A stretch of DNA of 64,000 bases from Stegostoma tigrinum (Eukaryota). Shown piece by piece: positions 1 through 64,000 of this stretch. Below the pieces are notes generated by a model. That model did no database searches. It was not told the DNA's origin and saw only the letters and a list, made by a program, of their open reading frames with translations. Position numbers and translations under genes: made by a program. Within the stretch, counting starts at the first letter, position 1, and each line of letters starts with the position of its first letter. The stretch lies in contig NC_081381.1 in assembly GCF_030684315.1 (NCBI RefSeq), forward strand, positions 25,671,811 through 25,735,810, given 5' to 3'.

Positions 1-73
1 TCTACACCTTGTTGCCTCTTATAGGAGATAATAGAATGGTTGATCAAAAATTTGATCAAAGATGTAGGTTTTA

Positions 74-861
74 CCTCCGCCCTCACCCCCATGCCAGGCC
101 TCAAGAAGATTTTCCACATCAAGCAGATGTTCACCTACACATCCCCCAGTGTGGTATACAGCATCCGCTGTACCCGTTGTGGCCTCCTCTACATCGGGGA
201 AACCAAGCAGAGGCTTGGGGACCGCTTTGCAGAACACCTCCGCTCGGTTCACAATAAACAACTGCAACTCCCAGTTGCGAACCATTTCAACTCCCCCTCC
301 CATTCCTTAGACAACATGTCCATCCTGGGCCTCCTGCAGTGCCACAATGATGCCACCCGAAGGTTGCAGGAACAGCAACTCATATTCCGCTTGGGAACCG
401 TGCAGCCCAATGGTATCAATGTGGACTTCACAAGCTTCAAAATCTCCCCTCCCCCCAGTGCATCCCAAAACCAGCCCAGCTCATCCCTGCCTCCCTAACC
501 TGTTCTTCCTCTCACCTATCCCCTCCTCCCACCTCAAGCCGCACCTCCGTTTCCTACCTATTAACCTCATCCCGAGCCCCCCAACCTGTCTGTCCTCCCC
601 AGACTGACTTATCCCCTCCCTACCTCCCCACCTACACTCACCTTTACTGGCTCCATCCCTGCCTCTTTAACTTGTCTGTCTTCTCTCCACGTATCTTCTC
701 CTCTATCCATCTTTGATCCGCCTCCCCCTCCCTATTTATTTCAGAACCCTCTTCCCCTCCCCCATTTCTAATGAAGTGTCTAGGCCCGAAACATCGGCTT
801 TTGTGCTCCTAAAACGCTGCTTGGCCTGCTGTGTTCATCCAGCTGTACAGTTTGTTATCTC
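74..861 (+). mobile_element. 5'-truncated Penelope-like element (family A): GIY-YIG endonuclease end plus pyrimidine-rich 3' region/pLTR
   Basis: ORF 40..498 has VVYSIRCTRCGLLYIGETKQRLGDRFAEH...G.N (GIY-YIG with CxxC). Flanked by direct repeat GGTTTTA (67-73 / 862-868), inside a degraded L2-like fragment. Confidence 0.88.
766..798 (+). ncRNA. Degenerate hammerhead ribozyme motif (family A PLE)
   Basis: CTAATGA-AGTGTCTAGGCCC-GAAACATC; core G5>A relative to the other copies. Confidence 0.5.
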
Positions 862-1513
862 GGTTTTAAGAAGTATCTTTTCAGAGGAGGAAGACAGAGC
901 TTGAGACCTGCACAGTTGAAGACACAGCTGCCAAACGTAAAGGGAAACAAGCTGTGGATGGATTTGAAGCCATAAATGTAGGAACACAGGGATCTTGAAG
1001 GTTACAGGACTTGAAGACTTTAAAATCAAGGTGTTGCTGGACTGAAACTAATGTATATTAGTAAGGAGGGGTCACTATTCTCCTGATCCAGTAAAGGATA
1101 TCTATCAATAGACATTCATTCCTGCCAAAGCTGAGAACAGCTAACTCAGCACAGACTGTAGACCAGGCCTAAAGCACCAAATTCAGTAGATTGAGTTCCC
1201 AATGTTTAGTTAATCCTAGTCTGCACTGAGTTAGCTGAAATGAACAGTGCAGCATTTGGGGGATGACCATTGATCTTGCCTCTGCTACATTGAATCTGGT
1301 CAATAGATTACGTGAATATGATGTAGCCCACAAGTGAATAAAGGCTTGAGTTCTAAGTTTGCAAGTGGCTACTTGAGCAATGTAGCTGGTGCCAATGTAG
1401 CACTGTACCATGAAATAAATGATTTGTGTAGGACAGTAGGAGAAAACTCCAGAACTCCATCCTACCCTAATGCTTTCAGCCTTCTGAGTGGTTTCACAGG
1501 CCCTCTCCATTAC

Positions 1514-4615: not shown

Positions 4616-4685
4616 CTGCAATAGAATTTCTGGGATCACTCACTGTTTCAAAGCATAGATGTAAATAATCAACCACCCTGTCCCA

Positions 4686-6182
4686 GATAACAAAGTGTGA
4701 AGCTGGATGAACACAGCAGGCCAAGCAGCATCTCAGGAGCACAAAAGCTGACGTTTCAGGCCTAGACCGTTCATCAGAAAAGGGGGATGGGGAGAGGGTT
4801 GAAATAAATAGGGAGAGAGGGGGAGGGGGACCGAAGATGGATAGAGGAGAAGATAGGTGGAGAGGAGAATATAGGTGGGGAGGTAGGGAGGGGATAGGTC
4901 AGTCCAGGGAAGACAGACAGGTCAAGGGAGTGGGATGAGGTTAGTAGGAAGGAAATGGAGGTGTGGCTTGAGGTGGGAGGAGGGGATGGGTGAGAGGAAG
5001 AACAGGTTAGGGAGGCGGGGACGAGCTGGGCTGGTTTTGGGATGCAGTGGGGGAGGGGGAGATTTTGAAGCTTGTGAAATCTGCATTGATACCATCGGGC
5101 TGCAGGGTTCCCAAGCGGAATATGAGTTGCTGTTCCTCCAACCTTCGGGTGGCATCATTATGGCACTGCAGGAGGCCCAGGATGGACATGTCATCTGAGG
5201 AATGGGAGGGGGAGTTAAAATGGTTCGCACTGGGAGGTGTTTATTGCGAACCGAGCGGAGGTGTTCTGCAAAGCGGTCCCCAAGACTCCGCTTGGTTTCC
5301 CCAATGTAGACGAAGCCACACCGGGTACAGTGGATACAGTATACCACATTGGCAGATGTGGAGGTGAACCTCTGCTTAATATGGAAAGTCATCTTAGGGT
5401 CTGGGATGGGGGTGAGGGAGGAGGTATGGGGGCAAGTGTAGCACTTCCTGCGGTGGCAGGGGAAGGTGCCAGATATGGTGGGATTGGAGGGGAGTGTGGA
5501 GCAGACAAGGGAGTCGCAGAGAGAGTGGTCTCTCCAGAAGGCAGACAAGGGTGGGGATGGAAAAATGTCTTGGGTGGTGGGGTCGGATTGTAGATGGCGG
5601 AAGTGTCGGAGGATGATGCGTTGTATCCGGAGGTTGGCGGGGTGATATGTGAGGACAAGGGGGATTCTCTTTGGGCGGTTATTGTGGGGGTGGGGTGTGA
5701 GGGATGTGTTGTGGGAAATGCGGGAGACACGGTCAAGGGCGTTCTCGACCACTGCGGGGGGGGGTTGTGGTCCTTGAAGAATGCGGACATCTGGGATGTG
5801 CGGGAGTGGAATGCCTCATCCTGGGAGCAGATGCGGCGGAGGCGAAGGAACTGAGAATAGGGGATGGAATTTTTGCAGGAGGGTGGGGGGAGGTATCTGT
5901 GGGAGTCGGTGGGCTTGAAATGGACATCAGTTTCTAGCTGGTTGCTTGAGATGGAGATGGAGAGGTCCAGGAAGGTGAGGGATGTGTTGGAGATGGCCCA
6001 GTTGAACTTGAGGTTGGGGTGGAAGGTGTTGGTGAAGTAATGAACTGTTCAAGCTCCTCTTGGGAGCAAGAGGCGGCGCCGATACAGTCATCAATGTAAT
6101 GGAGGAAGAGGTGGGGTTTGGGGCCAGTGTAGGTGCGGAAGAGGGACTGTTCCACATAATCTACAAAGAGGCAGGCATAGCC
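4686..6182 (-). mobile_element. Penelope-like element (family A), 5'-truncated, frameshifted RT C-terminus + GIY-YIG + pLTR
   Basis: Minus ORFs contain LFLHYIDDCIG (RT YxDD) and CYTCP...NVVYCIHCTRCGFVYIGETKR; near-identical to 74-861. Confidence 0.9.
4748..4779 (-). ncRNA. Minimal type I hammerhead ribozyme, intact core (family A)
   Basis: Reverse complement TT-CTGATGA-ACGGT-CTAG-GCCT-GAAA-CG-TC-AG: CUGAUGA and GAAA boxes, GUC triplet, ACGU palindrome. Stem II slightly weakened. Confidence 0.7.
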
Positions 6183-6224
6183 TCCCCCAACCTGTTTTAC
6201 ACCCTATACCACTGCTTTATTTAT

Positions 6225-6575: not shown

Positions 6576-6778
6576 TCATTGATCCCATTCCTGTACCCAA
6601 AGCATTCCTACATCCAGTCTCATCTACCCCTGACCTTCACATATAGCTGATTACATCCCTACACTTGATCCTCCCCTATACCCAATCCTCCCTTAGCACT
6701 AACCCGAACCCATGCCCAACCCTCCCGTAAACCTGAACCCAGCTTACACTCAACCCTGTCATAAATCCATCCATCCTA

Positions 6779-6864
6779 CATACCTGACCCTATCCTGTAC
6801 GAGATGCTCCTCCATACCTGACCCTATCCTATACGAGATGCTCCTCCATACCTGACCCTGTCCT
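6779..6864 (+). repeat. 34-bp tandem repeat (~2.5 copies) in a degenerate C-rich minisatellite (~6580-7050)
   Basis: CATACCTGACCCTATCCT(G/A)TACGAGATGCTCCTC twice plus a partial third copy. Confidence 0.85.
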
Positions 6865-7472
6865 AGGCCCAATCTTCCCCATACCCAACCCTCTATAAAC
6901 CTCATCTCACCACATACAACCCTGTTCTAGATTTGACTCTCCTCTTTACCCAACTTCATCCTACACTTGACATTTCCATACACCTGCTCCCATTTCCCCA
7001 CCACTTCCAACTGTTTCCTACACATGAGCCATTCACTACACACACAGCCCTGTCCGACACTACTCCTCTCCATATGGTTCAGTATACAAATGGGCTTTGA
7101 AAATGGGGATACCTGTTACTTGCTGAAGATCACAGTCACCTTTCTTGACATGGAAATTAGAAATGACTGTTGCCAAGTAATGCCACAATGTGGGAAAGAT
7201 GACATCGTAGACAGTCCTGATCTTCTTTTCACACAACTACCATACATATGCTTTCCACCATGGGATAATGACTAGTGGGAGAAGGGGAAAACTTGTCCAG
7301 CCCAGGATAAATGTCAATTGTAATACCCTTCCCACTATTCTAGCTTAGTACTACAGAACCTGAGTACTGCTGAAAATAAGTTAGTTTATTGAAGCTTTCT
7401 ATTTTGTACTCATCAGGACAATTCACAAGAATACCAATTCCAGGGGCAAACTAAAATTCACCCTGCCTGAGT

Positions 7473-8016
7473 GATAATGGGAACTGCAGATGCTGAAGAA
7501 TCCAAGATAACAAAGTGTGGAGTTGGATGAACACAGCAGGCCAAGCAGCATCTCAGGAGCACAAAAGCTGACGTTTCGGGCCTAGACCCTTCATCAAGCC
7601 CAATGGTATCAATGTGGACTTCACAAGCTTTAGAATCTCCCCTCCCCCCACTGCATCCCAAAACCAGCCCAGCCTGTCTCTGGTTCCCTAAGCTGTTCTT
7701 CCCCTCACCCATCCCTTCCTCCCACCTCAAGCTGCACCTCCATTTCCTACCTACCACCTCATCCCGCCTCCTTGACCTGTCCATCTTCCCTGGACTGACC
7801 TATCCCCTCCCTACCTCCTTCACCTATACTCTCTGCTCTACCTGTCTTGTTTTCCCTCCTTCTTCGGTCCGCCTCCCCCTCTCTCCCTATTTATTCCAGT
7901 TCCCTCTCCCCATCCCCCTCTCTGATGAAGGGTCTAGGTCCGAAACATCAGCTTTTGTGCTCCTGAGATGCTACTTGGCCTGCTGTGTTCATCCAGCTCC
8001 ACACTTTGTTGTCTCT
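7473..8016. mobile_element. Family A PLE insertion with inverted arms
   Basis: 16-bp TSD TTCACCCTGCCTGAGT (7457-7472 / 8017-8032). Minus arm 7473-7596, plus arm ~7597-8016. Confidence 0.88.
7920..7951 (+). ncRNA. Minimal hammerhead ribozyme (family A), AUC triplet
   Basis: CT-CTGATGA-A-GGGT-CTAG-GTCC-GAAA-CA-TC-AG. Confidence 0.65.
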
Positions 8017-8384: not shown

Positions 8385-10700
8385 GATAAAGCAGCACTTG
8401 CACAGCAATAACGTGCTCAGTCATGTCCAATCTGGATTCTGACAAGGCCATTCAGCTCCTGTCCTCTTTACAGTCTCGGTTAAAACTTGGAGAAAAGAGC
8501 TGAATTCCAGAGATGAGGTGAGCATGACAGCCCTTGCATTCAAATAAGTGTGGCATCAAGGAGCTCTAGCAAAACTGGAGTCAATGGGAATGAGAGGTCA
8601 AACTCTCTACTGGCTGGAATCATCCCTGACACACAGGAAGATGGTCGTGGTTGTTGGTGGTCAGTCATCTCAGCTCCAGGACATCTCTGCAGGAGTTCCC
8701 CGATTAGTTTACAGGCTCCATTATCTTCAGCTGCTTTTTCAATAACCTTCCATCCATCATAAGGTCAGAAGTGGGAAAGGTTGCCAATGGTTGCACAATA
8801 TTCAGCACTGTTCATGACACCTCACATACTGAAGCAGTCCACGTTCAAATACGACAAGATCTGGACAATACCCAGGCTTGGGCTCACATGTAGCAAGTAA
8901 CATTTGTGCCACGTAAATACCAGACAATAACCATCACCAATAACAGACAACCTAATCACCACCTTGTCATTCAATGGTGTCACCATCACTGAATCCCCTC
9001 ACTATCAAATCCTGGGGGTTACCATTGAACATAAATTCCATAAGATCATAAGACATAGGAGTGGAAGTAAGGCCATTCGGCCCATCAAGTCCACTCCGCC
9101 ATTTAAATCTTGGCTGATGGGCATTTCAACTCCACTTCCCTGCACTCTCCCCGTAGCCCTTGATTCCTTGAGAGATCAAGAATTTGTCAATTTCTGCCTT
9201 GAAGGCATCTAACGTCCCGGCCTCCACTGCGCTCCATGGCAATGAATTCCACAAGCCCACCACTCTCTGGCTGAAGAAATGTCGTCTCATTTCAGTTTTA
9301 AATTTACCCCCTCTAATTTTAAAGCTGTGCCCACGGGTCCAAGTCTCCCCGCCTAACGGAAACAACGTCCTAGCGTCCACCCCTTCTAAGCCATACATTA
9401 TCTTGTAAGTTTCTATTAGATCTCCCCTCAACCTTCTAAACTCTAATGAGTACAATCCCAGGATCCTTAGCCATTCATCATACGTTAAATCTACCATTCC
9501 GGGGATCATCCATGTGAATCTCCGCTGGACATACTCCAGGGCTAGTATGTCCTTCCTGCGGTGTGGGGCCCAAAATTGGACACAGTATTCTAAATGGGAC
9601 CTAACTAGATCTTTATAAAGTCTCAGAAGCACATCACTGCTTTTATATTCAAACCCTCTTGAGATAAATGACAACATTACATTCGCTTTCTTAATCACCG
9701 ACTCTACCTGTAAGTTGACTTTTAGAGAATCCTGGACCAACACTCCCAGATCCCTTTGTACTTCTGCTTTGCGAATTTTCTCACCATTTAGAAAATAGTC
9801 CATGCCTGTATTCTTTTTTCCAAAGTGCAAAACCTCACATTTACTCACATTGAATTTCATCAGCCGTTTCCTGGACCACTCGCCTGAACTGTCCAAATCT
9901 TTCTGCAGCTTCCCCACCTCCTCAGTACTTCCTGCGTGTCCACCTATCTTCGTATCGTCGGCAAACTTCGCCAGAATGCCCCCAGTCCCTTCATCCAGAT
10001 CATTAATATATAAGGTGAACAGTTGCAGCCCCAACACTGAACCCTGCGGGACACCACTCATAAATTCAACTAGCCACATAAACACAGTGGCTACAAGAGC
10101 AGCCCTGAGGCTGGGAATACTGTGGCAAGTAACTCACCTCCTGACTCCCCATAATATGTTCACCATCTACCAGACACATGATAGGAGTGTGATGGAGTAC
10201 TCACTACTTGACTAGATGGATGCAGTTCCAACAGCACTCAAGAAGCCTGACACCATCATGACAAAGCTGCCCATTTGATTGGTACGGACATCCACAGGCA
10301 TCTACTCCATTCATCACCAATGCTCAGTAGTAGCAGTGTGTACTATCAACAAGATGCGGTACAGAAATTCACCAAAGATCCTTAGACAGCACCTTCCAAA
10401 TCCATGACCACTTCCATCCAGGAGGATAACGGCAGCAGGTACATGGGAACATCACCACCTGCAAGTTCCCCTCCAAGCCACTCACCATATTGACATGGAA
10501 GTATATCACTATTCTTTCACTACTGCTGAGTCAAAATCCTGGAGTTCCCTCCCTAGTGGCATTGTGGGTCAACCTACAGCAGGTGGACTGTAGCAGTTCA
10601 AGAAGGCAGCTCATCACCACCTTCTCAATGGCAACTAGGGAGTGATAATAAATGCTGGCCCAGCCAGTGATGTCAACATCCCTCGAGTGAATTAAAATAA
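8385..10700 (+). mobile_element. Old degraded LINE (CR1/L2 superfamily) 3' portion, interrupted by a younger CR1
   Basis: RT-like remnants VWHQGALAKLESMG...ISAGVP; 3' end AATAAATGCTGGCCCAGCCAGTGATG...GTGAATT. Confidence 0.7.
9039..10058 (-). mobile_element. Young 5'-truncated CR1 LINE with open RT C-terminus
   Basis: ORF 9126..10085: SGVPQGSVLG...YINDL...KFADDTKIGG...YCVQFWAP...RLRGDLIE. (TCTTATG)n-type tail at 9039-9060; TSD CATAAATTC (9030-9038 / 10059-10067). Confidence 0.92.
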
Positions 10701-12340: not shown

Positions 12341-14770
12341 CATTTGTAGGAAATGGAAATTAAACAATTTAGTGATATTCTAAAGATATAATTGTGAGCA
12401 TATTCTCACAGCAATGTTTTTACACTGCTATATTCTAAAGAACAGACTCACTGAAAGAAACACTCAACAAATCTCCAAACAAGTATAAACATCACAAACC
12501 GAAACTACATTCATCTATTTCACACCATTCATACATTGTATTACAACACCAGACATTAAAGTGATTTTAACAAGAGGAGCTGGAGATGTTATCTGGGACT
12601 CGGTTGTGTTCTCCTTACCTTGATTCTGTCTCTCTCTGGCCTTGGGCTGGTATGACAGAAATCTCCGAGCTCTTTTAGAAAGCAGCTGCCCATTGACGTC
12701 AGGGACTCACAAACTTGTGTCCTTCACTGGGAAGTTCCTGGATTATCAGCAGGCTGGGAATTGGGCTGAGATTTGGCCTTCTGTTTTCTTCCTTGTGTAT
12801 TTATTTCAGCACAGTGTTGCTGCAGAAATGATGGTAAATTCAGTTGCTATTTATGAAGAAATTTTTTTTCCAATTCACTTTACTCGTCTTAATCTGTTTT
12901 CCTTCAACTTTTCACCTCTGCCACAGCACTGAAAAGACACTAATCAAAGCCACATTCTTTGTTACAATTACCATAATAACTAGCTACCATCATCCTTCTG
13001 GATCCCTGCACAGCCTTTAACATATGGACCAGTTTGTCCTGATCCCAAGCTTCTCCAATGTAATTGAACTGGATGGGAAAGACCTTGCCTGTCTCCATTA
13101 TTTACCTATTCAGTCATAATCAGAGAATCTCCTGCTAAGATTTCGCTTTCTGCTTCTGTTACTCCTTGAAATCCTGAAGGTTCTCTCCGTGTCTTCCTTC
13201 CTATTTCTCATGCACATACTACCCCTTGACAACTTCACGTGAAGACATGAAGTCAGGTTCCTTTTCACATTTTCACAGGTACACGAACAATGCTCAGTTC
13301 TACCTCTTCAACGCCTGTCTCAAGCCCTTCACTGCCTCTGTATTGTCAGGGTGCATGTCCAACATTCAGGTTTGAATGATTTAATCTCAATTCCTAGGTG
13401 CTTTCTCAGGCTGAAACAGGTAGTTCACATCCTCGATGTCACACTTGATCCTGGGTTGAACTTTCAAATGCATATCTGTTCGATTAGAGAGATCATCTAT
13501 TTCCATAACATCATCTGTCTCTGCACCTGCCTCAACCCATCTTTTGTTGAAATATTCTTTCATGTATTTGTTATCTCTAGCTTTGACTATTCCAATGTTC
13601 CGATGGTCAGTCTCCACATTGTCAACCCTTTAAACAATGTCAGCTCATTCAAAAATCTGTTCCCATAGCCTAAGTTGCATCAAGTCCCCTTTATCCCTTG
13701 TAATTGCTGATCTGTATTGACCCTCAGTCTTCCAATGCCTTAAATAGTGTTCACATCCCCCTCTATGGCATCATCTCTCCTTATCAGTGTCATTCCTCCA
13801 GTCATTCTTACTTTCAATTTATCTTTATTGTGGGCTGTCTGTTTATTGTACTGGTGCTCCCTTCAACATTGTTGTGTAGCTGAACAAGTGAACACTCTCA
13901 CAGAATGTTGCACGGGCTCAGACTGATTGCTGTACTATGTTAGATCCAGGGTTGCTGTGTCACTGCACATCCACACAACCCAATAACCCACCTACACCTC
14001 TGAATTCTTCCGGTTCTGACCTTTTATTCAACTGTTGCTTTATTTTTCCTGCTAGTTGTGGCCAAGCCTTCTGCCATCTAAACCCAAGTTCTGAATTTCG
14101 CCTCATCATTACCATGCTCTCCTTTGAGTTGATCATTGAAATCTACTTTGATGAAGCTTAGTTACTTGTTGTAATTGATACTTCATTAGCTTGATGTGCA
14201 ATTTGTCTGATTACATTTCTGTTTCATCCTACAATGATTTCCTTCATTGAATGTCTGATATAAATATACATTGATAGTGGATCACTGTGGAAACACTGCA
14301 AACTACACATCAAATATTTTGTGCATTTGAGTGTATAAATCAAGGAAATAAGTTTACAGTGTCACAGATATTGGTTAATTGGCAAAGATCTAGAAGCAAT
14401 CTGATTAGAAAGATATGCTCTACGACGACCTTGCTTTCTGCATAACATCAACACATTACCCATGTCACCGCTACAGGGTCATCTGTCGCCGAAATCACAA
14501 GTTGACCAGGATCAAAATTGATCCACAAGAACTTCTTCTTGCTAATGAATCAGAGGAAAAGTCTCTGCTGGTTGGAGTCATAGCTGAGTTGAACAAGTCA
14601 TATATATATTGTTACAACAACAGGTCAATTAAGAACTCTGCAGCAAGTATCTCAACACCTCCCCCCATTGCTTGCCCAACATAAACAAAGCACAAATCAG
14701 AAGTCTCATGGAATACTCTCCACTCATCTGAATGGATGCAGCTGGAGCAACACTCAGATGTTTAACACCA

Positions 14771-14993
14771 GAGATAATGGGAACTGCAGATGCTGGAGAA
14801 TCCAAGATAACAACGTGTGAAGCTGGATGAACACAGCAGGCAAAGCAGCATCTCAGGAGGCACAAAAGCTGACGTTTCGGGCCTAGACTCTTCATCATCC
14901 TCTCTGATGAAGGGTCTGGGCCCGAAACATCAGCTTTTGTGCTCCTGAGATGCTGCTGGGCCTGCTGCATTCATCCAGCTTCACACTTTGTTA
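14771..14993. mobile_element. Non-coding palindromic family A mini-element with two opposed hammerhead motifs
   Basis: 19-bp TSD ACTCAGATGTTTAACACCA (14752-14770 / 14994-15012). Minus arm to 14897, plus arm from ~14899. Confidence 0.88.
14902..14933 (+). ncRNA. Minimal hammerhead ribozyme (family A), intact core
   Basis: CT-CTGATGA-A-GGGT-CTGG-GCCC-GAAA-CA-TC-AG. Confidence 0.65.
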
Positions 14994-15719
14994 ACTCAGA
15001 TGTTTAACACCATCCTGGATAAAGTAGTTCACTTGATTCATACCCCATCCACCATGATTAATATTCAGCCCCTTCACTATTGACACACAGTGGGACCCAC
15101 TACAGGTTGGACAGCATTAACTTAGCAAGACTCCTTGGACTGCTTCTGAAACTGCAACATGCTTGAAACAATGGCAGCTGTTGCATGGGATCATGACTAC
15201 CTGCAACTTCAAGCCATGCAATATATTTTGACTTAGAACTACATTGCTGTTTTTTCATTGTCTCTATGTAAAGGTCCTGGAACTCCCTACTTAACAGCTT
15301 GAATGTGTGTTTTCACCAAATGGACTGTGGTGGATCAAGAAGGCAGCTCATTGCCACCCTCTCAAAGATGCATTCCATGAACAAATTACAATGAATAATA
15401 ATTTTAAAAAGAGAATTGGATAAATACTTGAATTGGAGAAACATTGCATAACTGTGGGTAAAGAACATGGAGTGACATCAATGGAATACTGTTGCCAAAA
15501 ACTGGCAATACATGAAATACATGAAAGGTCATAAATTCTTTCTCTCTTCACAAATGCTGCCAAATTTGATCTGTTTTCAACTTTCAGTTCTTCATCCACT
15601 GTAAGTTTGTGCTTTTGTAGAGTCAGAGATGGGCCAAATGACCTCCTGTTGCCTTATTACTTTCTTTGATCCTGGTGCCTGTTTCTTTAAAGGCAGCCTT
15701 ATCAATAGATAACGCAAAG

Positions 15720-18021: not shown

Positions 18022-19539
18022 GTAAGTTTATCTGGAATTTTCTCAGTCTTTTCAATAAATTAAAACTGACTGGAGCGTAACGCACCTTTGTACACAACAG
18101 ACTGAGTTGGCAATAGTCCTGGCCACAATAGGTACAGAAGGTGTACTAGACATGGGGCATCCTTTGGTGTGCTTTGGCTGTAGTTGTGGTTATATGCTAA
18201 TGCTGTGGTGTAGTGTGACTCCCACAACACACAATCTGTATGATACTGCTTTCTGCTTAGGCTCCTGTGAATGGTTGGAAAGTATCTGAGCGTTGAAATA
18301 ACTGTTTTAATTCATGTGCCTTTGTCACTATATAGGGACCATTCAACAATGTGCATTCCAATTGTCCACATGTTCCTGTGCCAGTTTGACTCTGGTCCCA
18401 CCTTCCAAATGAAAAGAGGCACCTGTTTTTCTTCACTCTTGCCTGTTTTTAGGATATGTAGATGAACAGATCCTGGGCGTTGTAGAATCAGAATTGTTCT
18501 CCATGCTGTGATAGTTGTATATCTATTCAAGGGATGTGGGCTTTGCTAGCAGCATCTATTGTCTGACTGTAATTGCTTTTAGAAGATAGATTGAAAAAGA
18601 TGGAAAACATCCTTCTGGAACCCCTGGTAGTAAGTATGAAGATGCACTCACTGCTGTTGGGTAGGAGTTTCAGGATTATGATACTGTGGCTGATGAAGGA
18701 GCATTAATGTTTTTAAGATCACAGTCGTGATGTCATGTGGCTTGTTTGGGACTATTGAATGTGTTGCAGTATTCCTGAAAATGTGTGGAGTTTTAGGAGT
18801 TGGTGTCTAAGAAGCCTTCACAAAGTTGTGCACTGCGGTCAAAACATTGATTCTAATCTTACAAATGGTGTTTTTATTGTGAAGTGAGTGGCTTACTAGA
18901 CCATGTCAGGGGGTATTTAAGGATAAAGCATATTGCTTTAGTACATGCAGAAGCAGACCAGGTAAGCATGGCAGAATTCTTTTCCCTGAAGTAGTGTAGT
19001 AGATGGATTTTTTTTTACAACAATCTGTTTGTATTGTGGTGACCATTCATGATACTAACCTTTACTGCAGGTTTTTTCCACAGCTGATTTTAAATTTCCC
19101 ATCTGCCATGATGGAGTTTGAATCCATGTTTGGATCATTGGTGCAGGCCTCTGGATTTCTAGTCTAGTAATGTATTCAGTACGTTGACATATCTGTTACC
19201 TGTTGTGTTATGCTCCTTAAGAACAATAACTTTGGTTACTCTTATGGAGACATCCAGGTGTGTTACACGGGAACCATTAAGCCCAAGGGGGTGTTTGGGG
19301 TTTGAGCATAAGCTTGGTCCAGCCATTTGTGAAATGGAGAGTCCGGGAGAGTGTGAAACCCATGCAGATCCACCACCAATGCTCAGTAGCAACAGTGTGA
19401 ACTATCTCTGTAAGATGTACACTCACCCACCCCTCTGGCCAAGCCATCTATTGCCGATCCTTCAGTGTCATTGGGTCAAAATCCTGGAATTCCCACACTA
19501 ATGGCATTGTGGGTCAACCCACAGAGGATAGATTGCGAG

Positions 19540-19633
19540 CTAACAAGGTGTGGAGCTGGATGAACACAGCAGACCAAGTAGCATCTGAGGAGCAGGAAAG
19601 CTGATGTTTCGGGCCTAGATCCTTCTTCAGAAA
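19540..19633 (-). mobile_element. Short family A mini-element with hammerhead (19601-19632)
   Basis: Reverse complement TTT-CTGAAGA-A-GGAT-CTAG-GCCC-GAAA-CA-TC-AG followed by the family A 3' sequence; inserted in a LINE 3' fragment. Confidence 0.75.
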
Positions 19634-21709
19634 CGGGCCAGTTCAGAAATGGCAGCAGTTCAAGAAGGCAGCTCACCAATGCCGCCTTTAGGACTACTGG
19701 GGGTGGGCAATAAATGCTGTCCAATCTGTGATGCCTAGATGCCACAAATTTAATAAAAATGAAAGGGAGAGGTTTGTAGGGTGATTGTGTGAAGTGATTA
19801 AACAGGAAAATGAGACAGTAAATTTTAAGGCACTGGATTAGTGAGGGTGTGGGTCAATGAATTGTCTATGATCAATTCTGACTAGTTTTGGAAGATCGGA
19901 AGTTTGCTACACAAGCATTTGATTCATCGGCTCTGGAGGGACATGAGGGTACAATGTTTAACGTAGATCTGTATGACTGACAAAGCTGTGGATATGGACA
20001 GTATTGCCTTGTGACTGAGAGAATTGGATTGAATGCATAACTTGAAGAATGAGATGTCAAAATTGTAAACAGCTTGTTTTGACAAGGAAAAGCCTGATCA
20101 GGGGTGGTGTCGGCGGTATGATTGCAGTATTTGCGTTAGGACTGTAGACAATGGCTTTAGTCTTCCCAGAGGTTATTTGGGGAAAGTTGTAGGTTATCCA
20201 AGATTAGATTTTGGATATGATTTGCAATACTGAGTCAGTAGAACTTTTGAAATGGATCTTTATATTAGCAGTGCACGTATGGAGACTGGCCCTGTCACTT
20301 TCAAAGTCACCAAGAGGCCATATATAGATGAGCAGGGCTACAGACAAATCTTGGAAGTTCCCATGATGATCGTGAGCTAGAAAGAGATGTTGGTGACTTT
20401 GTTGGCATGAGTGGAGTTGAGTGCAGGCTGGATAGATATTGGGAGGTTTGATGGTTAGAGTCCAAAGCTGCAGAGAATAATGCATTGCAGTTGTTGAATG
20501 GTTTTTTAATTTCCTTTTTCTAAAATCTAAATTGCTGCTTTCATGGAAACTAGTTTGGAGAGTTTCAAAGAGTGAGTTGTGACAAAGTTGGCTGTCAGTC
20601 CTGGAAGTCGGCAGGGTGGTTGAGATGGGCATTGTTTGTTGCCTGTTTTTGGTAATAAAGTAGTATTCATCTGCAGCCTAAATGTGGCTTTTAGGGTGGT
20701 TTTTGTCAGCATAGCACAAAGATGATCTGTTGCAGCTTGATGTGATCCTTTAGATTCCTTTTATAGTTGTGTATGCACATTAGCTTTTTGCATGCTGAGC
20801 TATACATATCTTAGATCTGCACTAGTAGCATTAGTAATGTCCAGAGTGAATGCGTTTTGGCCAACTTTGAGATCACCTTGATCGAGTCAAGCGTGATGTT
20901 CTTCCCCCCTCCCTTGTGTGAACTGAAACAGGGATATCCAATCGACCCCTGTTAGCTTGGGCTGTTCAGTGACTTTTTAATGGACTGTGCCCTGTCCCAC
21001 GTGGTACTTGATTTTAGGAAGATAAATCCTGATTCACCTTTTCTCTTCCATATTGGTTGAATCACTGCTCATTTGAAAGAGGACCACCAATGGAATTTTC
21101 AGACTTTGCTGCTCAGTACTACTTCGGAGTGTGTCTATTCACTGCTGGTGTTGCTTGAGAGAAATGTTTGGAAATAATAGTTGCTGAGTGATTTTTTTTT
21201 TTGGCTTCACAAACTCTGTTATAGAATATTGTGCTTGACGTTGATTTGGTGAAAATAAAACGGGTCATTTGGAGTTCCCTTCCTGTGACATTTCATGATA
21301 GTTGAATCCTGTTTCTGACATCAGGGTTTGAACTTCACGAATTTTTGTTTAAGATGAGGAAGAATAGTGTAAGGGAATGTACTTGAGGTGGATGTTTTCT
21401 GCTCACTATCTAAACCAGTTTGATTAATTGTGATCATCTCTTCTGTGGTTCAGAAGATCAGGATTTATCTTCCTAATGGTTTGTGGCTAATGAGATATCA
21501 CCTCTGGGCTTGTAGGTAAACCATTATTGTGACCAGCAGGTGCTGAGGGTTTGAGAAACAAGTGGCAGTATTCAGAATTTGTAAACCAGCTGAATTAAAG
21601 CGAAAGGATTGCTGAAAATCTAATTGGGTGCTATGATGAGAGAGTTGAATGTACAGCAGAAGCAACCTCCAAGTTCCAGTCTAATCAAACTTGAGTGGTA
21701 CAGTATACA

Positions 21710-22044
21710 AGATAACAAAGTGTAGAGCTGGATGAACACGGCAGGCCAAGCAACATCTCAGGAGCACAAAAGCTGACGTTTTGGGCCTAGACCCTTCATC
21801 AGAGAGGGGGATGGGGAGAGGGTTTTGAAATAAATAGGGAGAGACGGGGAGGCAGACCAAAGATGGAGAGAAAAGAAGGATAGGTAGATAGAAGATAGGC
21901 CTCCCCCCTCTCCCTATTTATTCCAGTTCTGTCTCCCCACCCCACGAAACATCAGCTTTTGTGCTCCTGAGATGCTGCTTGGCCTGCTGTGTTCATCCAG
22001 CTCCACGCTTTGGATTCTCCAGCATCTGCAGTTCCCATTATCAC
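21710..22044. mobile_element. Family A PLE insertion with inverted arms
   Basis: 14-bp TSD TGGTACAGTATACA (21696-21709 / 22045-22058). Minus-arm hammerhead 21773-21804 has G12>A; the plus arm lacks the CUGAUGA box. Confidence 0.85.
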
Positions 22045-23229
22045 TGGTACAGTATACATTTGGCTGCCTAACATTTCACTGGACAGTGCTGCTCAGGAAG
22101 CCAAATTGAATGTTTTGAAAATTTTACTTTCAAGATGAAATTGTTTTTCTGAATGAAAAGTAACCCGCTAATACAATACCCATGGCCCGTGTGGATGACT
22201 GCTGCTCAGGATTGCTGCTTCTGTTCCGGCACCTAGTCTGCCAAACGCATTGCAGCTTTTAAGAAGCTTAACTGAATAGTAGTTTAACTGCAGCAAACCA
22301 CATGCAGGTCAAGACAGTTCAAGGTGCTAGAATTTCTTGTGATACTCTAAGCAGTCACACTGGAAAGTGAAGTTTATGCTGGAGGTCAGCTGCAGTCTTC
22401 CAAAGCAAGGCAGGCTTGCTGCTGGTCTTTAATGTTCTTCATTCACCACTCTCACACGGGCTATTGACTTGGGTGTTGCCATCTGTATTTCACTTGCGTT
22501 GCAAGATTTGGAACCCAGTTTTGGAATCTAGCTGTTTCATGATCCAAGGGGACGCAGCTCTTTATGTTTATACAGTGCCTTTAAGATAAAGCCATTTCAC
22601 AGAAAGAAACAAGTATTCCTCCCATTCCATCAAATTTTGAGTGACAGCTCTGCTTAATGTGACCTAGACTGTCTGGATGTAACACAGACTTGAATCTTTG
22701 TCCATGGTGTGTGGCAGTAATAGTGTGCCAGTACTCGATATCACAACATGGTTAGGCACAGTGTCAGTATCTCTTCCAGATCTGTTGAGTTGGGTATTTA
22801 CACTGAATTTTCTAACATTGTCTCAGCATATTTCGCAGTTCTAAATTTGACACAATAAAATAGTAAATTTTTAATCACAACTCTGACCTTCATTTCATTT
22901 ATCTTGAAGACTCTGTGATCGTACAAGTTCTAGTATTTTCTCCAGTTCACACGCGTAGAATGTTAGCCAGCTATTAGCCACCCTTGCCTGATTAATCAGG
23001 GCCAATCCCATTCAGGTTTTGCTTGACTTCCAAGTTGCCTGTTTTCTATTAAGATTCTTTGGGTAGCAATTGAGAGCAAGAATCTAGCAGTTATTTTCCC
23101 TCGCTCCATTAGTGTCCACTTATAAACCAGGCTGTGCGCTTCCTGATTTGGTGGTAATGTTAATACAAAATGGTACGTTACTGGCCCAACTACGTGTATA
23201 TTATCAAAAACAAATGAAGCACTTATTAA

Positions 23230-29800: not shown

Positions 29801-30242
29801 GGCCCATTTTAAATGTGCTGACTGTTTGAAGGATGAGCTAATGACATAGTTATAATGTCACTGAAGTGGAAATCCAGGTGCCTAGACTAATTCTCTGGGG
29901 ATGTTGTTTCATACTTTACTGAAGCAGCTTGTGGAATTTAAAGTCAATTAACAAGTAAATGTGAAATTAAAAGGCTCTTCTGAGCAATGGCAAACATGAA
30001 GGTATCATCAATAATTGGGAATTACATGCCTGGTACATATTACCCTTGTTTTTGTTTATTCATTCACTGGATGAGGGTGTTTCTGGCTAGGGGATGGGCA
30101 ATACATGCTGCCAATTGTCCAGAAGTTAGTTATGAGTCAACCATACTACTGTGGGTCTGGAGTCACATGTAGGCCATACCAGGTAAGGTTGGTAGTTTCC
30201 TTCCCTAAAGGACATTAGTGAACCAGATGGGTTTCCCACAAT

Positions 30243-30312
30243 ATAACGAAGTGTGAAGCTGGATGAACACAGCAGGCCAAGCAGCATTTCAGGCCTAGAC
30301 CCTTCTTCAGAG
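30243..30312 (-). mobile_element. Internally deleted family A mini-element inside a SINE
   Basis: Family A sequence ending at CTGAAGA; imperfect duplicated flank AGATGG(G/A)TTTCCC..AATA. Confidence 0.65.
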
Positions 30313-35379: not shown

Positions 35380-36320
35380 TTCCCTTCCCCGCCCCCTTGC
35401 ACCACCAACCCCTGTCCCACACAGCAGATTCCACTAGCACCAAAACCTGGTTAACCACAACCATAACTAGCAGGTTAGCGATCATTATGGGATGTATGGT
35501 TACCGGGGCGACCAGACGAGACGTCACAACTGGGCATGTGCGTTCCAATTTTTCTCTCCCCTCTTTCTGTCTTTTTTTGGATTTTTTTCAGGCGGGGGGC
35601 TGAGGAGATTTTTTTGTTGGTGTGTGGCGGCCATTTTTCCACCTCACCCTGACAAATCTGTCAATATAGTCACTCCACCCGGCTCCTACCTTTTTTTTAA
35701 AAACCCAACAAGGACTTTTCCTCCTGTATTTTATTAATTTAAAAATCTTCCTTATTTGCATTTTCCTTCCTCTGGTTAAAATCTCACCTTTTCAGGATTT
35801 TAATGTGAATCTTCTGTGACCCCCCCCCCATATCTCTCTTTAAAAAAATACATTAGTTTAACATTCAATGATGCCGGCATCTTTTGGCAATGAGGAGGAC
35901 GGGATGGAAAACGATGAGGGAGCCCCAGGTAGGTGTTGATGTAGATCTCATTAACAATAATTTTCATGCTTAAGTTGTCGGTGGAAAAAAAGACGAGGAA
36001 ACCAAGCAGCAATTCCCTTTATATGTAATATACACAAGAACATATATACATTTGAACAGGACCTACAGCCTAGCAGCAAACGCCGGTAACTTCAGTATTT
36101 GGCCAAGCCCGGGAGTGTCTGCAGAAAGTGTGTGACGAAGAGGAGGAGGAGTGGGAGCGGGGGCCGCGGGAAGCCGCCTTTCAGGGGCTTCTTGTCGGCT
36201 TATTTCGCAAGTTTTTCCGGTTTCCCCCTCCGCTCCCTTGCAGCCGCCGGAGACACTTTGTGTTCGAAGCTACCAATGGCGCGGGTCTGGACCAAGAAAA
36301 GGATCTGATGCATATTCATT
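35380..36320 (+). promoter_or_regulatory. CHD5 promoter / CpG-rich region
   Basis: GC box CCCCGCCCCC ~35387, CRE-like GACGTCA ~35520, YY1-like GCGGCCATTTT 35627-35637; CpG-rich through ~36300. Confidence 0.6.
35868..35928 (+). CDS. CHD5: CHD5 putative first coding exon
   Basis: MMPASFGNEEDGMENDEGAP then G|gtagg. Resembles human ..EEMENEDEMS; phase 1 fits exon 2; lies in a CpG-rich promoter. Confidence 0.7.
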
Positions 36321-43899: not shown

Positions 43900-44900
43900 G
43901 AGCCTCTGCTACTGTTTCTGCCACCTCCAGTGGGAAGACACGCATTCCCCTTTCCTCCCATGTAGGTCTTCTGCATAGTCCGTTCCTCCTTCACTCCCAG
44001 CACCATCCTATACAATCCAAGAAGCTGTAGCACCTGCCTGTTTACTTCCTCCCTCATCACCATCCAAAGCTCAGGTACCTTCCAGATGAAACAGCAATTT
44101 ACCTTCATGTCACATGAAGGGTCTAGGCCCGAAACGTCCGCCTTCCTGCTCCTTTGATGCTGCTTGCCCTGCTGTGTTCATCCAGCTCTACACCTTGTTT
44201 ATCTCAGATTCTCCAGCATCTGCAGTTCCTATTATCTCTGTCACTCAGTCTAATCTACTGTGTTAGCTGCCCATAATGTGGTCTCCTGTACATGGGGTGG
44301 GGGGGACAAAACACAGACCAGTGACCACTTTGCAGAACACCTGTGTTCTGTCTGCAAAAATGACACTGAGCTTTGTGTTGCCTGCCACTTCAGCACACTA
44401 CCACGTTCCCTGGCCAACATCGCTGTTTTGAGCTTGCTGCAGTGCTCCAGTGAAGCTACATGCAAGCTAAAAGAACAGCGTCTCATTTTTCACTTGGGGA
44501 TCATGCAGTCTTCAGGACTCAATATCAGGTTCAATAATTTTAGGTCCTGAGCACTCTCTCCCATGTCCTCGGCCCAACCCCCCAGCCACACACTAGGCCT
44601 TGTCATCACATGGGTTGCTACCACAGCCGTCCCATTATCAGCTACAAATGATCCTAATCAACAGCTGGTGATTCCCCCAGGCTGATCTTTACACATTCGA
44701 GTGTCCAACTATTGCCCTATCTCTCTGAGCTCTCTCCATCTATTGTTTACTCTTCCTCGTCTGCCCCTCCCCCCCAATTCAGTAGAAAGGTCACGAGACC
44801 CAAAATGTTAACTCTGCTTACTCTCCACAGATGCTGCCGGACCTGCTAAGTTCTCCCAGCAACTTCTATTTTTTGTTTCCAATTTTCAGCATTCGCAGTC
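43900..44900 (+). mobile_element. Inverted partner copy of the family B PLE (GIY-YIG end + pLTR)
   Basis: ORF 44260: DHFAEHLCSV...VACHF...LKEQRLIFHLG...GLNIRFNNFRS; reverse complement of 41905-42650. Confidence 0.78.
44114..44238 (+). mobile_element. 125-bp family A mini-element nested in the family B PLE
   Basis: ATGAAGGGTCTAGGCCCGAAACGTC...TTCCTATTATCTC flanked by TGTCAC (44108-44113 / 44239-44244). Confidence 0.8.
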
Positions 44901-48949: not shown

Positions 48950-49059
48950 ATAATAAAGTGTGAAGCTGGATGAACACAGCAGGCCAAGCAGCATCTCAGG
49001 AGCACAAAAGCTGACCTTTCGGGCCTAGACCCCCCAGCATCTGCAGTTCCCATTATCTC
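48950..49059. mobile_element. 110-bp family A mini-element: inverted arm plus short tail in opposite orientation
   Basis: TSD TGGTTTTT(A/G)TTCTGT (48935-48949 / 49060-49074). Confidence 0.8.
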
Positions 49060-49710
49060 TGGTTTTTGTTCTGTTATGTTTTTAATAATGACCCTCAACA
49101 GGAGAGACTGAAATGAACTCTGTACCCCATGGACAATGACCATGATCCAGAATCCATATTTAGTTCTCATTGACCCTACAAATGTATTTCCTTGGCCATT
49201 AAACTAGTTTGGGAGGTATTTTAAAAATGTTTTATAAATGCCAGTTGTTTTTGTCCTTGTTACTGACCACCTAATTTTCTCTTTTCTTCCTCGGTTTCAG
49301 CTTTCATCTTCTCTTTCTCCTCCTCTTGCTTTTTGCCTTTTTTCCATTTCATGTTTCTCTCTCCTGCCCTACACAATGTCCAGTGCTTATTCTCCTGTTT
49401 CTGTGGAAGATGGTTGGATGTCCCTTGCTCTTTGCCCTCCTCCTTTTTGGTTAGTTTGTTTTCTTGTGCTGGTTTGGAATGTTGACCGTTGGTCAAACCA
49501 GCCTTGATGATTGCCCTCCTATTGAGTTGCTAGTGTCTCTCTGTCAGTGATGTCTGTTTCTGACAACCATGTTACACACTATTCTAGCAGGTAAGCAAGC
49601 AAACTAAATGCAACAATCAAAACGCACTCTTGCTTTCTGTCTTATTTTTTACCAACAGGCTCAAAAGTATGTTGGCTTGCAGACAGACATTTCTAATTGG
49701 CCTGTTTGGG

Positions 49711-53654: not shown

Positions 53655-53752
53655 GGATAACAAGGTGTAGAGCTCAATGTACACAGCAGGCCAAGCAGCA
53701 TCAGGGGAGCTGGAAGGTTGATGTTTTGGGCCTAGACCCTCCTTCAGAAAAT
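53655..53752 (-). mobile_element. Degenerate family A mini-element
   Basis: Homologous to 19540-19633; starts at TTTCTGAAGG. Confidence 0.65.
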
Positions 53753-54503
53753 GAATATTTTCAGACAGCAGTGATTCCTTTTGTCACTCTCTATCTCTCT
53801 GTGCATCTGTGTCTGTCTCCGAAAGCCACTGTCCCTTTTCTTTGTCAAGGGTTATTTGTATTTCAATACGTTTCAGAATAACTTCCTTTCACTGTGGAAA
53901 CCCGATCTCGTGGACCAGTTTCTGGGTCAACGTTTAGGAGCATCATCGTTTCCCCCACACCATGAACGTTCAGTGTTGTCTTAAATTAAAAGAGACAAAT
54001 TACAACAACTAACTTGTAAAGTCTCTCATTTATAACAATATGCTGATAGAATTAAATGGAGAGACGTAGAAAGAAGTTGGTATGATCACTGAGACACTAC
54101 TTGAGCCAAGTGACTTGCTTCTGAAATACATTTTTATATTTCTTTCTTTCCAATCTTTTGGTCATGTTCTTATTTTTTTTTGTGCGTCCTTTTGTCAAAT
54201 TTTATACAGTCACGTTCCTGCAAAATTCTTGGTATAAGCTACCACAGATGTACTATATAAATGCAAATTGTTTGTGACCAGCAGTATCTTAGAAACAATT
54301 CGTCAAGGAACAAAAATATTTGTTTTTCTAGGTCAGGATATTGTTTTAATATTTAGTGAGTGACTGTGATCTATAATTGGTAACTGATACATACATCTTC
54401 ACTGTCTTAACTCGATTATTTTAATGTCTCTCCTGCATGGAATCCAGTCTTAACACATTTTAGTCCTTGATTAAACCCTGAAAGCCTGTCTTGATTTCCA
54501 CAG

Positions 54504-54661
54504 AGGAAGAGGAGGAAGAAGAGGAAGAGGAGGAGGACGAAGAAGGAGGAGGTCGGGAAGTATTGTTTTCTGAAGAAGAGCCAGCCAAAGTGAAGAAAAA
54601 AAGGAAACCACGGAAACAGAAAGAGAACAAGACTCCCAAACTGAAGAAGAGAAAGAAAGAG
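54504..54661 (+). CDS. CHD5: CHD5 exon 2 (acidic tract + basic NLS-like stretch)
   Basis: ccacag|AG; EEEEEEEEEEEDEEGGGREVLFSEEEPAKVKKKRKPRKQKENKTPKLKKRKKE|gtaac, like human ..KKKKPKKLKENK..RKKKE; phases 1 and 0. Confidence 0.85.
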
Positions 54662-61955: not shown

Positions 61956-62204
61956 TAATTGTTTGATAATAATTTTAAAAAAAACCTTTTTTTTCCCCTT
62001 TTTGCTTGTATTCAGTTGTGTGTTGGTTTGCTTACATTTTTTGTGTAGCCTGTGCCATTTGAACAGGACAAAGGGAAGCCTTACCTTATTAGAAATAACT
62101 CCAATACCTTTCAATCCCACTTTCTGAGCCTTGAGATCTGTTTGCATTCCCAAATCCAATTTTTTAGTACTGGACTCATGAAACAAAATAGTTGACTGGT
62201 AATG

Positions 62205-62331
62205 GAGATAATGGGAACTGCAGATGCTGGAGAATCCAAGATAATAAAGTGTGAAGCTGGATGAACACAGCAGGCCAAGCAGCATCTCAAGAGCACAAAA
62301 GCTGATGTTTCGGGCCTAGACCCTTCATTAG
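62205..62331 (-). mobile_element. 127-bp family A mini-element starting at the hammerhead core
   Basis: TSD AGTTG(A/C)CTGGTAATG (62190-62204 / 62332-62346); reverse complement begins CTAATGAAGGGTCTAGGCCCGAAACATCAG. Confidence 0.85.
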
Positions 62332-64000
62332 AGTTGCCTGGTAATGTTTTGTCCCATGTGATGCGAGCATCCCTTGTGGTTCTGGCACAGCGAAGTGTTC
62401 ACTAAATACTGCTAATGATGGCTGCTAGTAGGACTGACCTTTCACAATATTGATGAGGTGTGTTATGTGAAGACACTGCATTCTGTTTGGAATGTTTTAA
62501 TTGGAATGTCAGGTATCCTTTGGGTGTAAATGTTAGCTAATGTCTTGCTGGCAGCAGTGGGACCAGCACTAACTCTAAAGCTAAACACTGAGAATTACAA
62601 TGTATTGATTTGCCTTAATGTGTTTTGTGTTTACATGGTGGACGTGTGACCCACCTCCCTGCACACACGCTCTTGGAATGGCAGAATGACATACCATAGA
62701 ATAGGTGGTTACACCATTGTACTTGTGCTGACTTATCCCCCCCCAACCCCCTTGGGTTGGAATCTTTTCCCCTTCTGGTATTTATCCAATTCACTTACTG
62801 ATGTCGCCATTGAATCTCCTGTGGGCACCCTTTCAGGCAGAGCACTCGGATTACAATTTTGCTGAGCTAAACAAAAAAAAAGTCTCATGTTGCCACTGGT
62901 TCTTTTGTCAAGTACCTTAAATGTGTCTCCTCTAGACAGTCTCTGCTGCCACTGGGAGCAGTACTTATTTAAGTTGTTGCATATCTCCCTATCCTTCACT
63001 CCACACATGCAACCATACCTTCGCCTGTCCCGGCCCCATACTGTGACACTACCTCCCAAAGGAAATTGGCAAAATTTAAAGTATTTGGCAAAAACATCAT
63101 TGGTGGCATGAGAGAGTCATTTTTACATGGTGTCCCAGATAATGAGAACTTACTGCCTGAAGAAATAGTAAAAGTAGTAGATTCAGTAACTACTTCCATT
63201 AGAGTGGGCCTAATTGGAAAGCTGTTCCAAGGAGCTAGCACAGGTACAGTGGGCTGAAAGGCAACATTTTGTGTTGCACCATTGTTTCCTAAACCCTTTA
63301 AATGTCATTTTCTTTCTCTTTATTCTTTCTGGGAAGGGAGTGTTACTGGCAGGACCAGCCCTTGTTTTCTCTTGTGCTGGGTGGCTTCCTAGGCCATTTT
63401 GGAGGGTAGTTAAGGGTCACCCACATTCTGTAGGTCTGCAATCACATATAAAGGCAGACTAGGTGAGGACAGCAGATTTCCTTTCCTGGAAGGCATTTAT
63501 GAACCACATGGGTTTTACAACAGTTGTTGATATCGTCATTTAATTGTTATGTAAACATATCACTGTTTATCTTATGGATTTATTCACCAAATTTGAATTC
63601 CACCATTTCCTTTTGTGGGATTTGAATCCGAGTTCCTGGAATATTAGCCTAACCCTTTGGACTGCTGCTTTACATCTAAGATCCCTAATGGGGAACAGTG
63701 CCTGAATTGGATTCTAGAATATTGTCTCCTCAAAAGGCAGTGAATGCTGAGGGCCAGCTGGAGCTTTCAGGTTGAGATTATTAGGTTTGTTGGGTTAGAG
63801 TAATAAGGGCTAATGGATTTGAGACAATTTCAGCTTGATCTGGTGGAACAATCATTCAGGCTTGGCGCTGGAAAAGAAAGCTCCTGATCCTCTGCTGGGG
63901 TGATGGCAGGGAGGCTACAAGACTCAGCATCATTCAGGTTAAGGAAAGGTGCGGGTGTATTTGTCAGGATTCTTCTTCCTGACTGCTATCCCATAAACAA

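Follow-up and report, generated by a model that had tools for sequence, protein, structure and literature searches.

A probable Neptune-clade Penelope-like element of Stegostoma tigrinum with a minimal type I hammerhead sequence in each terminal repeat, and the relation of this sequence to insertion ends

A short motif at 4748..4779 of the window (the whole 64-kb stretch of Stegostoma tigrinum DNA analysed here) raises three questions: whether it is a ribozyme, what carries it, and what part it plays in the spread of its carrier. The first-pass annotation had read it, together with a dozen other sites in the window, as a minimal type I hammerhead of a Penelope-like element (PLE), belonging to a young, high-copy self-cleaving RNA family in a shark-like genome. 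We find the motif at 13 of the 13 listed sites (Table 1), with 1-7 of 32 positions deviating from the family sequence at each. Positions in the element are counted from C3 = 0, which places the predicted cut between +27 and +28. The core C3UGANGA9, G12AAA15.1 and U16.1H17 is present in the family and in the copy at 4748, which retains both core boxes and the ACGU/GUC and in which G10.1>C and C11.1>U break the conserved closing pair of helix II, G10.1-C11.1. None of the 13 sites is intact, and an exact 30-mer of the family has no match within the window.

The motif shares with the PLE minimal hammerheads described by Cervera & de la Pena (2014; PMC4209133) the core boxes, the extra nucleotide after A9, the G10.1-C11.1 pair, the palindromic 15.2-16.2 step and the lack of a loop III. 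It matches the definition given there, and by sequence is a PLE minimal hammerhead of the kind described in 2014.

Table 1. Coordinates of the hammerhead motif, its host copies and related insertions (window positions unless a locus is named)
Feature	Position	Strand	Details
Minimal type I hammerhead motif, damaged copy	4748..4779	-	C3 at 4777; predicted cut between 4750 and 4749
5'-truncated Penelope-like element, family A	4683..6183	-	RT C-terminal part, Zn-finger linker, frameshifted GIY-YIG, pyrimidine-rich 3' UTR, hammerhead, short (+92-type) 3' end
CX4CX2C linker motif, RT/endonuclease junction	5432..5458	-	From translation; Neptune/Nematis trait as given in the Craig et al. preprint
GIY-YIG core including two Cys of the CCHH motif	5237..5347	-	Pfam PF01541 E 8e-4, under curated cut-off
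Second 5'-truncated family-A copy	73..866	+	Endonuclease, 3' UTR, hammerhead 766-797 with G5>A
Head-to-head insertion unit	7470..8014	.	Inverted stump, long (+128) end, motif 7568-7599 (-), and forward 3' fragment, short (+92) end, motif 7920-7951 (+); 16-bp target-site duplication
Palindromic unit, two hammerhead-headed stumps	14769..14996	.	Motifs 14869-14900 (-) and 14902-14933 (+); one long, one short end; 19-bp target-site duplication
Older subfamily-B stump, start = motif 5' edge	19530..19637	-	Motif 19601-19632
Head-to-head unit	21702..22046	.	Motif 21773-21804 (-) with G12>A; 14-bp target-site duplication
Stump with internal deletion	30239..30312	-	3' half of motif missing
Subfamily-B-type stump, long end	44109..44240	+	5' box of motif truncated
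Head-to-head unit	48950..49061	.	Motif truncated at about +8
Subfamily-B stump, start = motif 5' edge	53656..53749	-	Core decayed
Family-A stump, long end, G5>A	62197..62333	-	Start = 2 nt before C3
Family C examples	L229:5904; L198, L072 and others; window about 27740	+ (L229); - (window)	
Family D examples	L239:8475; L078, L197, L069, L093	+ (L239)	

Several other features lie in the same window. An old PLE fragment (43253-43770, minus strand) has 66% identity to the family-A ORF upstream of the RT core. A non-LTR RT fragment (9126-10133, minus strand; Pfam RVT_1 E 2e-7) is, judging by eye, presumably CR1-like. The CpG-rich stretch at 36050-36290 resembles a promoter or first exon, with a possible small exon and splice donor at about 35870-35930. 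A 34-bp tandem repeat in three copies occupies 6774-6875, and a GAG/GAA-rich tract at 54490-54560 has no convincing ORF.

A descriptor consisting of the core boxes, a helix II of at least 4 bp and the NUH triplet, with helix I excluded, returned 121 matches in a 1.574-Mb genome sample against 0-2 in five Markov-1 shuffles. Covariance models did not recover the motif: Rfam hammerhead models gave no match at gathering threshold in the window, and an intact copy had no hammerhead among its four Rfam matches up to E 10. Both kinds of search had been proposed in the first-pass annotation, and the first bore the assignment out. A single unpaired nucleotide separates A9 from 10.1 in 118 of the 121 descriptor matches, a reading that the script favours on ties. 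The 10.1-11.1 pair is GC in 93 matches and GU in 23, and the palindromic 15.2-16.2 step, closed without a loop III, is CG in 74, CA in 30, TG in 13, TA in 2 and other in 2.

These matches fall into families, of which A includes the copy at 4748 and B consists of its older relatives. Helix I pairs in every family though it is absent from the descriptor: CU/AG in A, UU/AG or UU/AA in B, AGUU/AACU in C, and UCA/UGA or GCA/UGC in D. It is 2 bp long in 77 of 83 family-A matches, and reaches 4 bp in family C and 3 bp in family D. At pair 2.2-1.2, family A has CG in 79 and UG in 25 of 111 copies, and family B has UG in 54, UA in 21 and CG in 6 of 97. Two-sided changes occur at seven of eight pairs, with a covariation of 0.79 against 0.30 shuffled and at most 0.16 slid, in nine hand-picked copies; as those nine were selected by the descriptor, the helix II covariation is partly circular.

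Family C is an older, related PLE end in which helix II has 5 bp, the triplet is GUU, and the 4 bp of helix I begin right at a TCAGTT initiator-like motif; in this set it is the best natural candidate for a cleavage assay. Family D is an unrelated PLE with a different endonuclease type, possibly Poseidon, whose ORF ends inside a minimal hammerhead with a 6-bp helix II.

Conservation of the core over its flanks had been put forward as a check on the ribozyme reading, and it holds across source lineages. Families C and A agree at 11 of 11 core positions against 44 of 63 downstream positions (P = 0.03), the family C set having been gathered by downstream sequence only (49 of 55 kept). Inserted copies are weakly informative, because they decay neutrally. 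Non-CpG core changes number 14/1126 against 334/11164 in flanks that include minor subfamily variants (P = 3e-4), and CpG core sites decay by 9-20% across inserted copies; in family A, 19 of 129 copies have a mutated G12, a catalytic residue that is part of a CpG, and 27 of 134 a mutated G16.2. Given the subfamily variants in the flanks and the CpG decay in the core, we do not read the copy-level contrast as selection on copies. Since inserted copies decay while core and pairing are kept across lineages, selection probably acts on source lineages instead.

The family is very abundant. Across the 3.2-Gb genome the exact 30-mer has 90,316 matches (45,079 and 45,237 by strand), against none for a reversed control, and it has 45 in the genome sample. 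Ends in the sample comprise 178 of family A and 150 of the older B type, which scales to several hundred thousand per genome, and just 3 of these 328 copies reach the ORF start. Core, helix II and palindrome are retained in 74 of 199 motif-spanning copies. Across +30..+72, 73 of the 178 sampled family-A copies are identical to the reference; thus a young subfamily exists, and the window copies are older. The high copy number first claimed for the family is therefore borne out, its youth applies to a subfamily and not to the window copies, all of which are decayed, and its self-cleavage is putative; the motif is part of a retroelement terminal repeat and not a stand-alone RNA.

That retroelement is a 3.8-kb PLE encoding RT and GIY-YIG domains, with the hammerhead in both terminal repeats. 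A stepwise upstream walk across genome copies reconstructed the unit in the order motif, leader of ~165 nt, ORF (RT, Zn-finger linker, GIY-YIG), pyrimidine-rich 3' UTR and second motif. Two motifs flank the ORF at one locus (L242), 3,779 nt apart, for a unit of ~3.78 kb. The single ORF, encoding RT plus, at the C terminus, a GIY-YIG domain, is interrupted in 12 of 12 long copies examined, the longest stop-free stretch being 631 aa. A GIY-YIG copy at 25-498 clears the PF01541 curated cut-off. Among named proteins the nearest are those of sharks and a ray, at 67-81% identity, and marine invertebrate sequences rank next, in agreement with the shark-like origin first suggested for this DNA.

Both the CX2-5CxxC linker, here CX4CX2C, and the endonuclease CCHH residues (read by eye) of Neptune elements are present. 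The linker is described as common to Neptune and Nematis (Craig et al., 10.1101/2021.04.23.441226), and the consulted parts of the literature report such PLEs in vertebrates from Neptune and Poseidon only; this combination makes a Neptune assignment likely. We conclude that the element, as judged from its motifs, probably belongs to the Neptune clade. Between its N-terminal domain and the RT, the family-A ORF carries a variable Thr/Ala/Pro-rich tandem repeat whose length differs by copy (L242 about 1650-1900; L253). In three copies at a further locus (L061), the final 125-130 nt of the 3' UTR follow directly on the ORF start (about +325); these copies may represent an internally deleted, tandemly amplified derivative.

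Insertions of this element have sharply defined ends. Their 3' ends lie at about +92 or +128 from C3, which corresponds to the known 30-40 bp tail. Head-to-head pairs number 80 in our set, and once 12 with an end outside both classes are left out, 65 of the 68 classifiable pairs join one short and one long 3' end, where 49% would be expected. Target-site duplications of at least 6 bp (6-19 bp) flank 48 of the 68 head-to-head units against 1 of 68 controls. The joints within pairs vary among insertions, and hammerhead-headed stumps share subfamily variants and both 3' ends with long copies.

At the other end, insertions pile up at the 5' edge of the motif. Of 111 family-A copies at risk, 41 have their 5' end at -8..+1, against 2 of 70 in the 52 nt upstream (-60..-9); the edge interval takes 62 of 97 in family B and 33 of 87 in family C, and none of 24 in family D, which carries the same ribozyme type. 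The hazard of a 5' end falls about 50-fold just upstream of the edge, where C content is equally high, and two near-full-length copies (L138, L145) begin at the edge too. The cut site attracts no comparable excess: the bin at +26..+32 holds 9 of 140 for family A, no more than adjacent bins, and over all loci 112 of 377 5' ends lie at -8..+1 against 7 at +27..+29. The 103 edge copies divide into 61 with an inverted partner, 40 for which no partner was detected and 2 that follow internal element sequence; with so many paired, part of the pile-up could stem from fold-back or from processing of palindromes. Of 13 joins in the same orientation, 6 begin at -8..+1. In public contigs (X3), loose ends concentrate at -1 (732), +91..+93 and +130, and 4 of 11 joints among those listed lead to +28, the first base past the cut site, so that a minor class of cleaved templates is possible. 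A second contig set (X4) does not single out +28 among its top loose ends. Two more sets (X1, X2), tentatively taken to derive from RNA, consist of contigs and were therefore set aside as evidence on expression or start sites.

Several origins for these 5' ends can be set aside. Ends defined by cleavage should peak at +28, and no such peak appears in the genome sample or among the top X4 loose ends. A template spliced at the nearest upstream AG (-23) is rejected, as 5' ends do not pile up there. Homing of the element into its own repeat would leave same-orientation element sequence upstream, which was found in only 2 of 103 edge copies, both internal. Cleavage of a type III or HDV-like kind upstream of the core is rejected as well, given that no hairpin lies between the upstream AUC and C3 and that 5' ends, judged by eye, lack an initial G.

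The sequence at the edge is compatible with a transcription start. Source templates read TCAGTT in family C, CCATTTC in many of family B and CCTCTCT in family A, which match, respectively, TCAKTY, YYANWYY and the human TCT motif (definitions in PMC4581360), each with +1 at -4; these motifs are short, and chance matches come easily in pyrimidine-rich DNA. Some family-B templates have C instead of A at -4. An untemplated G is reported as the trace of a copied cap in L1 (PMC9341517), and the untemplated base before family-A ends is G in 14 against A in 3 of 26 (P = 3e-4). The signal was not replicated in family B (G 7 against A 5 of 26), in held-out family-A ends (0 against 1 of 3) or, under the same rule, in family C (2 against 1 of 9); at a fixed -5, a post hoc count, family C gave 8 against 2 of 28. 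We regard the cap-G signal as a lead. Taken together, the edge pile-up, the lack of a cut-site peak, the initiator-like motifs and the pairing of short with long ends suggest that insertions derive from uncut RNA starting at the ribozyme.

Folding predictions point in a similar direction. The minimum-free-energy monomer is an inactive rod (-11.4 kcal/mol) in which CUGAUG pairs with CGUCAG, that is, the core with the cut site. An active double-hammerhead dimer is predicted at -5.5 kcal/mol against -22.8 for two inactive monomers, and an inactive duplex formed through the self-complementary helix II at -38.0, all energies leaving out core tertiary contacts. Helix II with its loop is fully self-complementary in family A (L011:1509-1520), so that two molecules are predicted to form a duplex of 12 bp whose fold is inactive. 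Pairing of two RNAs by way of the palindromic loop II, stable but inactive by prediction, is not retained as a route to activity; the loop palindrome, moreover, is not kept in subfamily B. Fold z-scores for the motif were not significant. Low activity has been reported for other minimal hammerhead dimers (PMC4209133), and the hammerhead of an anole PLE required protein in vitro, with uncut RNA as the main substrate (Frangieh et al. 2024, PMC11167929). The weak predicted folds and dispersed motifs fit both reports, and we predict that the family-A hammerhead cuts weakly or rarely.

In our judgement the evidence makes it likely that each repeat of a probable Neptune-clade PLE carries this motif as a minimal type I hammerhead sequence, that the motif lies at the RNA 5' end, that its cutting, predicted to be weak, needs the element protein or a second copy, and that insertions come mostly from uncut RNA. 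Under the mechanism we propose, Pol II would start about 4 nt before C3, which would limit helix I to at most 4 bp. The element protein would nick both target strands, and RT would prime at +92 on one and at +128 on the other, internal starts that we propose by reference to those shown in vitro for the anole element. Where priming occurs in the 5' repeat, the cDNA would run out of template at the RNA end, some 95 or 130 nt on, and leave a hammerhead-headed stump or a head-to-head pair, and some run-off cDNAs may jump to another site on the RNA. Long copies would need read-through, a circular template or a jumped one. The hammerhead, kept under selection in source lineages, would cleave a minority of RNAs at some step, with help, perhaps to decap or circularise them, and inserted copies, the one at 4748 included, would decay neutrally.

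A more specific form of this proposal we hold tentatively, as a possibility somewhat short of even: the hammerhead begins at the capped start, and internal reverse transcription yields a retrovirus-like strong-stop cDNA with two possible fates, insertion as a stump, which would account for copies in the hundreds of thousands, or a jump to the redundant 3' repeat. On this view the ribozyme would not make the template ends but would serve as a switch, gated by protein, for taking off the first 32 nt with their cap.

Other readings have to be weighed against these data. In the classical model, two motifs pair through ACGU, cut efficiently, and either set the RNA ends or yield unit-length circles as the main templates, the stumps being an uncut minority. 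The two motifs of each full element would allow this, and the palindrome has been kept, with 74 of 121 matches CG and 45 its CpG-decay products. The missing peak at +28 counts against linear cut templates but is compatible with circular ones, which would have no 5' end there, and there are the X3 joints that reach +28. Low dimer activity, in turn, has a precedent in other minimal hammerheads (PMC4209133). Yet the intermolecular helices of the dimer total only 8 bp, its predicted energy is far above those of the inactive monomers and the inactive duplex, and none of the 159 motif copies has a same-strand neighbour within 300 nt. We consider the classical model unlikely. The stumps might instead form a non-autonomous family of their own, SINE- or retrozyme-like, with transcription from short masters that start at the motif, given their fixed ends and how greatly they outnumber ORF-bearing copies. 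The subfamily variants and two 3' ends that they share with long copies speak against such a family, as do the differing joints of pairs, the lack of tandem arrays and the common start of near-full-length copies; we think it highly improbable.

It could also be that the hammerhead-like sequence is kept for some other job, as a promoter or initiator, a protein-binding site or an RT stop, that cleavage has been lost in this lineage, and that the pile-up marks where RT stops or folds back, not where transcription starts. The 2-bp helix I of family A, the inactive rod predicted for the monomer, the many edge copies that sit in palindromes and the unreplicated cap-G signal are what such a loss might look like. 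What it explains poorly is the persistence, across lineages about 30% different downstream and in the unrelated family D, of every one of the 11 catalytic-core positions and of pairing in helices I-III; nor does it readily account for the 40 edge copies with no detected partner or for the steep fall in hazard upstream of the edge despite equal C-richness. We judge it quite unlikely, and prefer transcription of mostly uncut RNA from the ribozyme edge.

Comparison with known systems places the element within a recognized group and marks out where it departs from it. Minimal hammerheads have been reported in the Neptune, Poseidon and Xena elements of fish, and as here they occupy both pLTRs and occur mostly as dispersed single motifs (PMC4209133). 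Helix II has 4 bp here against 7-8 bp in S. mansoni, and helix I has 2 bp against 4-5 bp in the S. mansoni or typical form, a D. virilis variant also having 2 bp (PMC4209133). In Penelope of Drosophila virilis the start site lies in the pLTR, as proposed here, with an initiator and an internal promoter (Schostak et al. 2008, PMC2377424). That start is placed 46 nt upstream of a 75-nt intron that ends at helix I (PMC2377424), whereas the shark 5' ends lie directly at helix I.

Another close system is PAc, the Poseidon element of Anolis carolinensis (PMC11167929), which has two RT start sites, a tail-length apart and downstream of the hammerhead, as proposed here, and likewise shows no sign of cut RNA as insertion template. 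The PAc ORF starts within the ribozyme, whereas here the ATG lies ~165 nt downstream and the protein has a Zn-finger linker. Insertion 5' ends are mapped to the motif edge here, and the consulted parts of the PAc study contain no such mapping. With the units of EN+ PLEs (Arkhipova et al. 2013, PMC3846280; 10.1101/2021.04.23.441226) our insertions share partial tandems, an adjacent inverted 5'-truncated copy, a 30-40 bp tail on one end, target-site duplications and palindromic junctions. Arkhipova et al. explain head-to-head junctions by self-priming on an antisense template (PMC3846280); two cDNAs primed separately would better fit the rule of one short and one long end in 65 of 68 pairs. Non-LTR retrozymes (Li et al., 10.64898/2026.07.22.740005), reported from one chondrichthyan genome, resemble the family in having type I hammerheads related to those of PLE pLTRs. 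Retrozymes form tandem arrays, in contrast to the dispersed copies found here, and on that ground we reject a tandem-retrozyme identity.

Both the ribozyme type and the host class have been in print since 2014, and the shark family is a further case. The word 'shark' is absent from two supplementary files of PMC4209133, and a search confined mostly to the open literature turned up no report of PLE hammerheads from sharks, nor any of insertions whose 5' ends lie at the motif edge. What sets this family apart is its size, with one exact sequence at 90,316 copies against about 4,000 minimal hammerheads in all reported for the coelacanth and 9,000 for Xenopus (PMC4209133), making it at least 10 times more numerous than the vertebrate sets named in that paper.

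The sharp, countable insertion ends of this family suggest that the main template is uncut RNA beginning with the ribozyme, and that two RT start sites are used as a pair. Such data make the role of PLE hammerheads directly testable, and the start-site and strong-stop reading is the part worth testing. If that reading is true, this genome would record the start site, the priming sites and the strand transfer of a Penelope-like element at base resolution.
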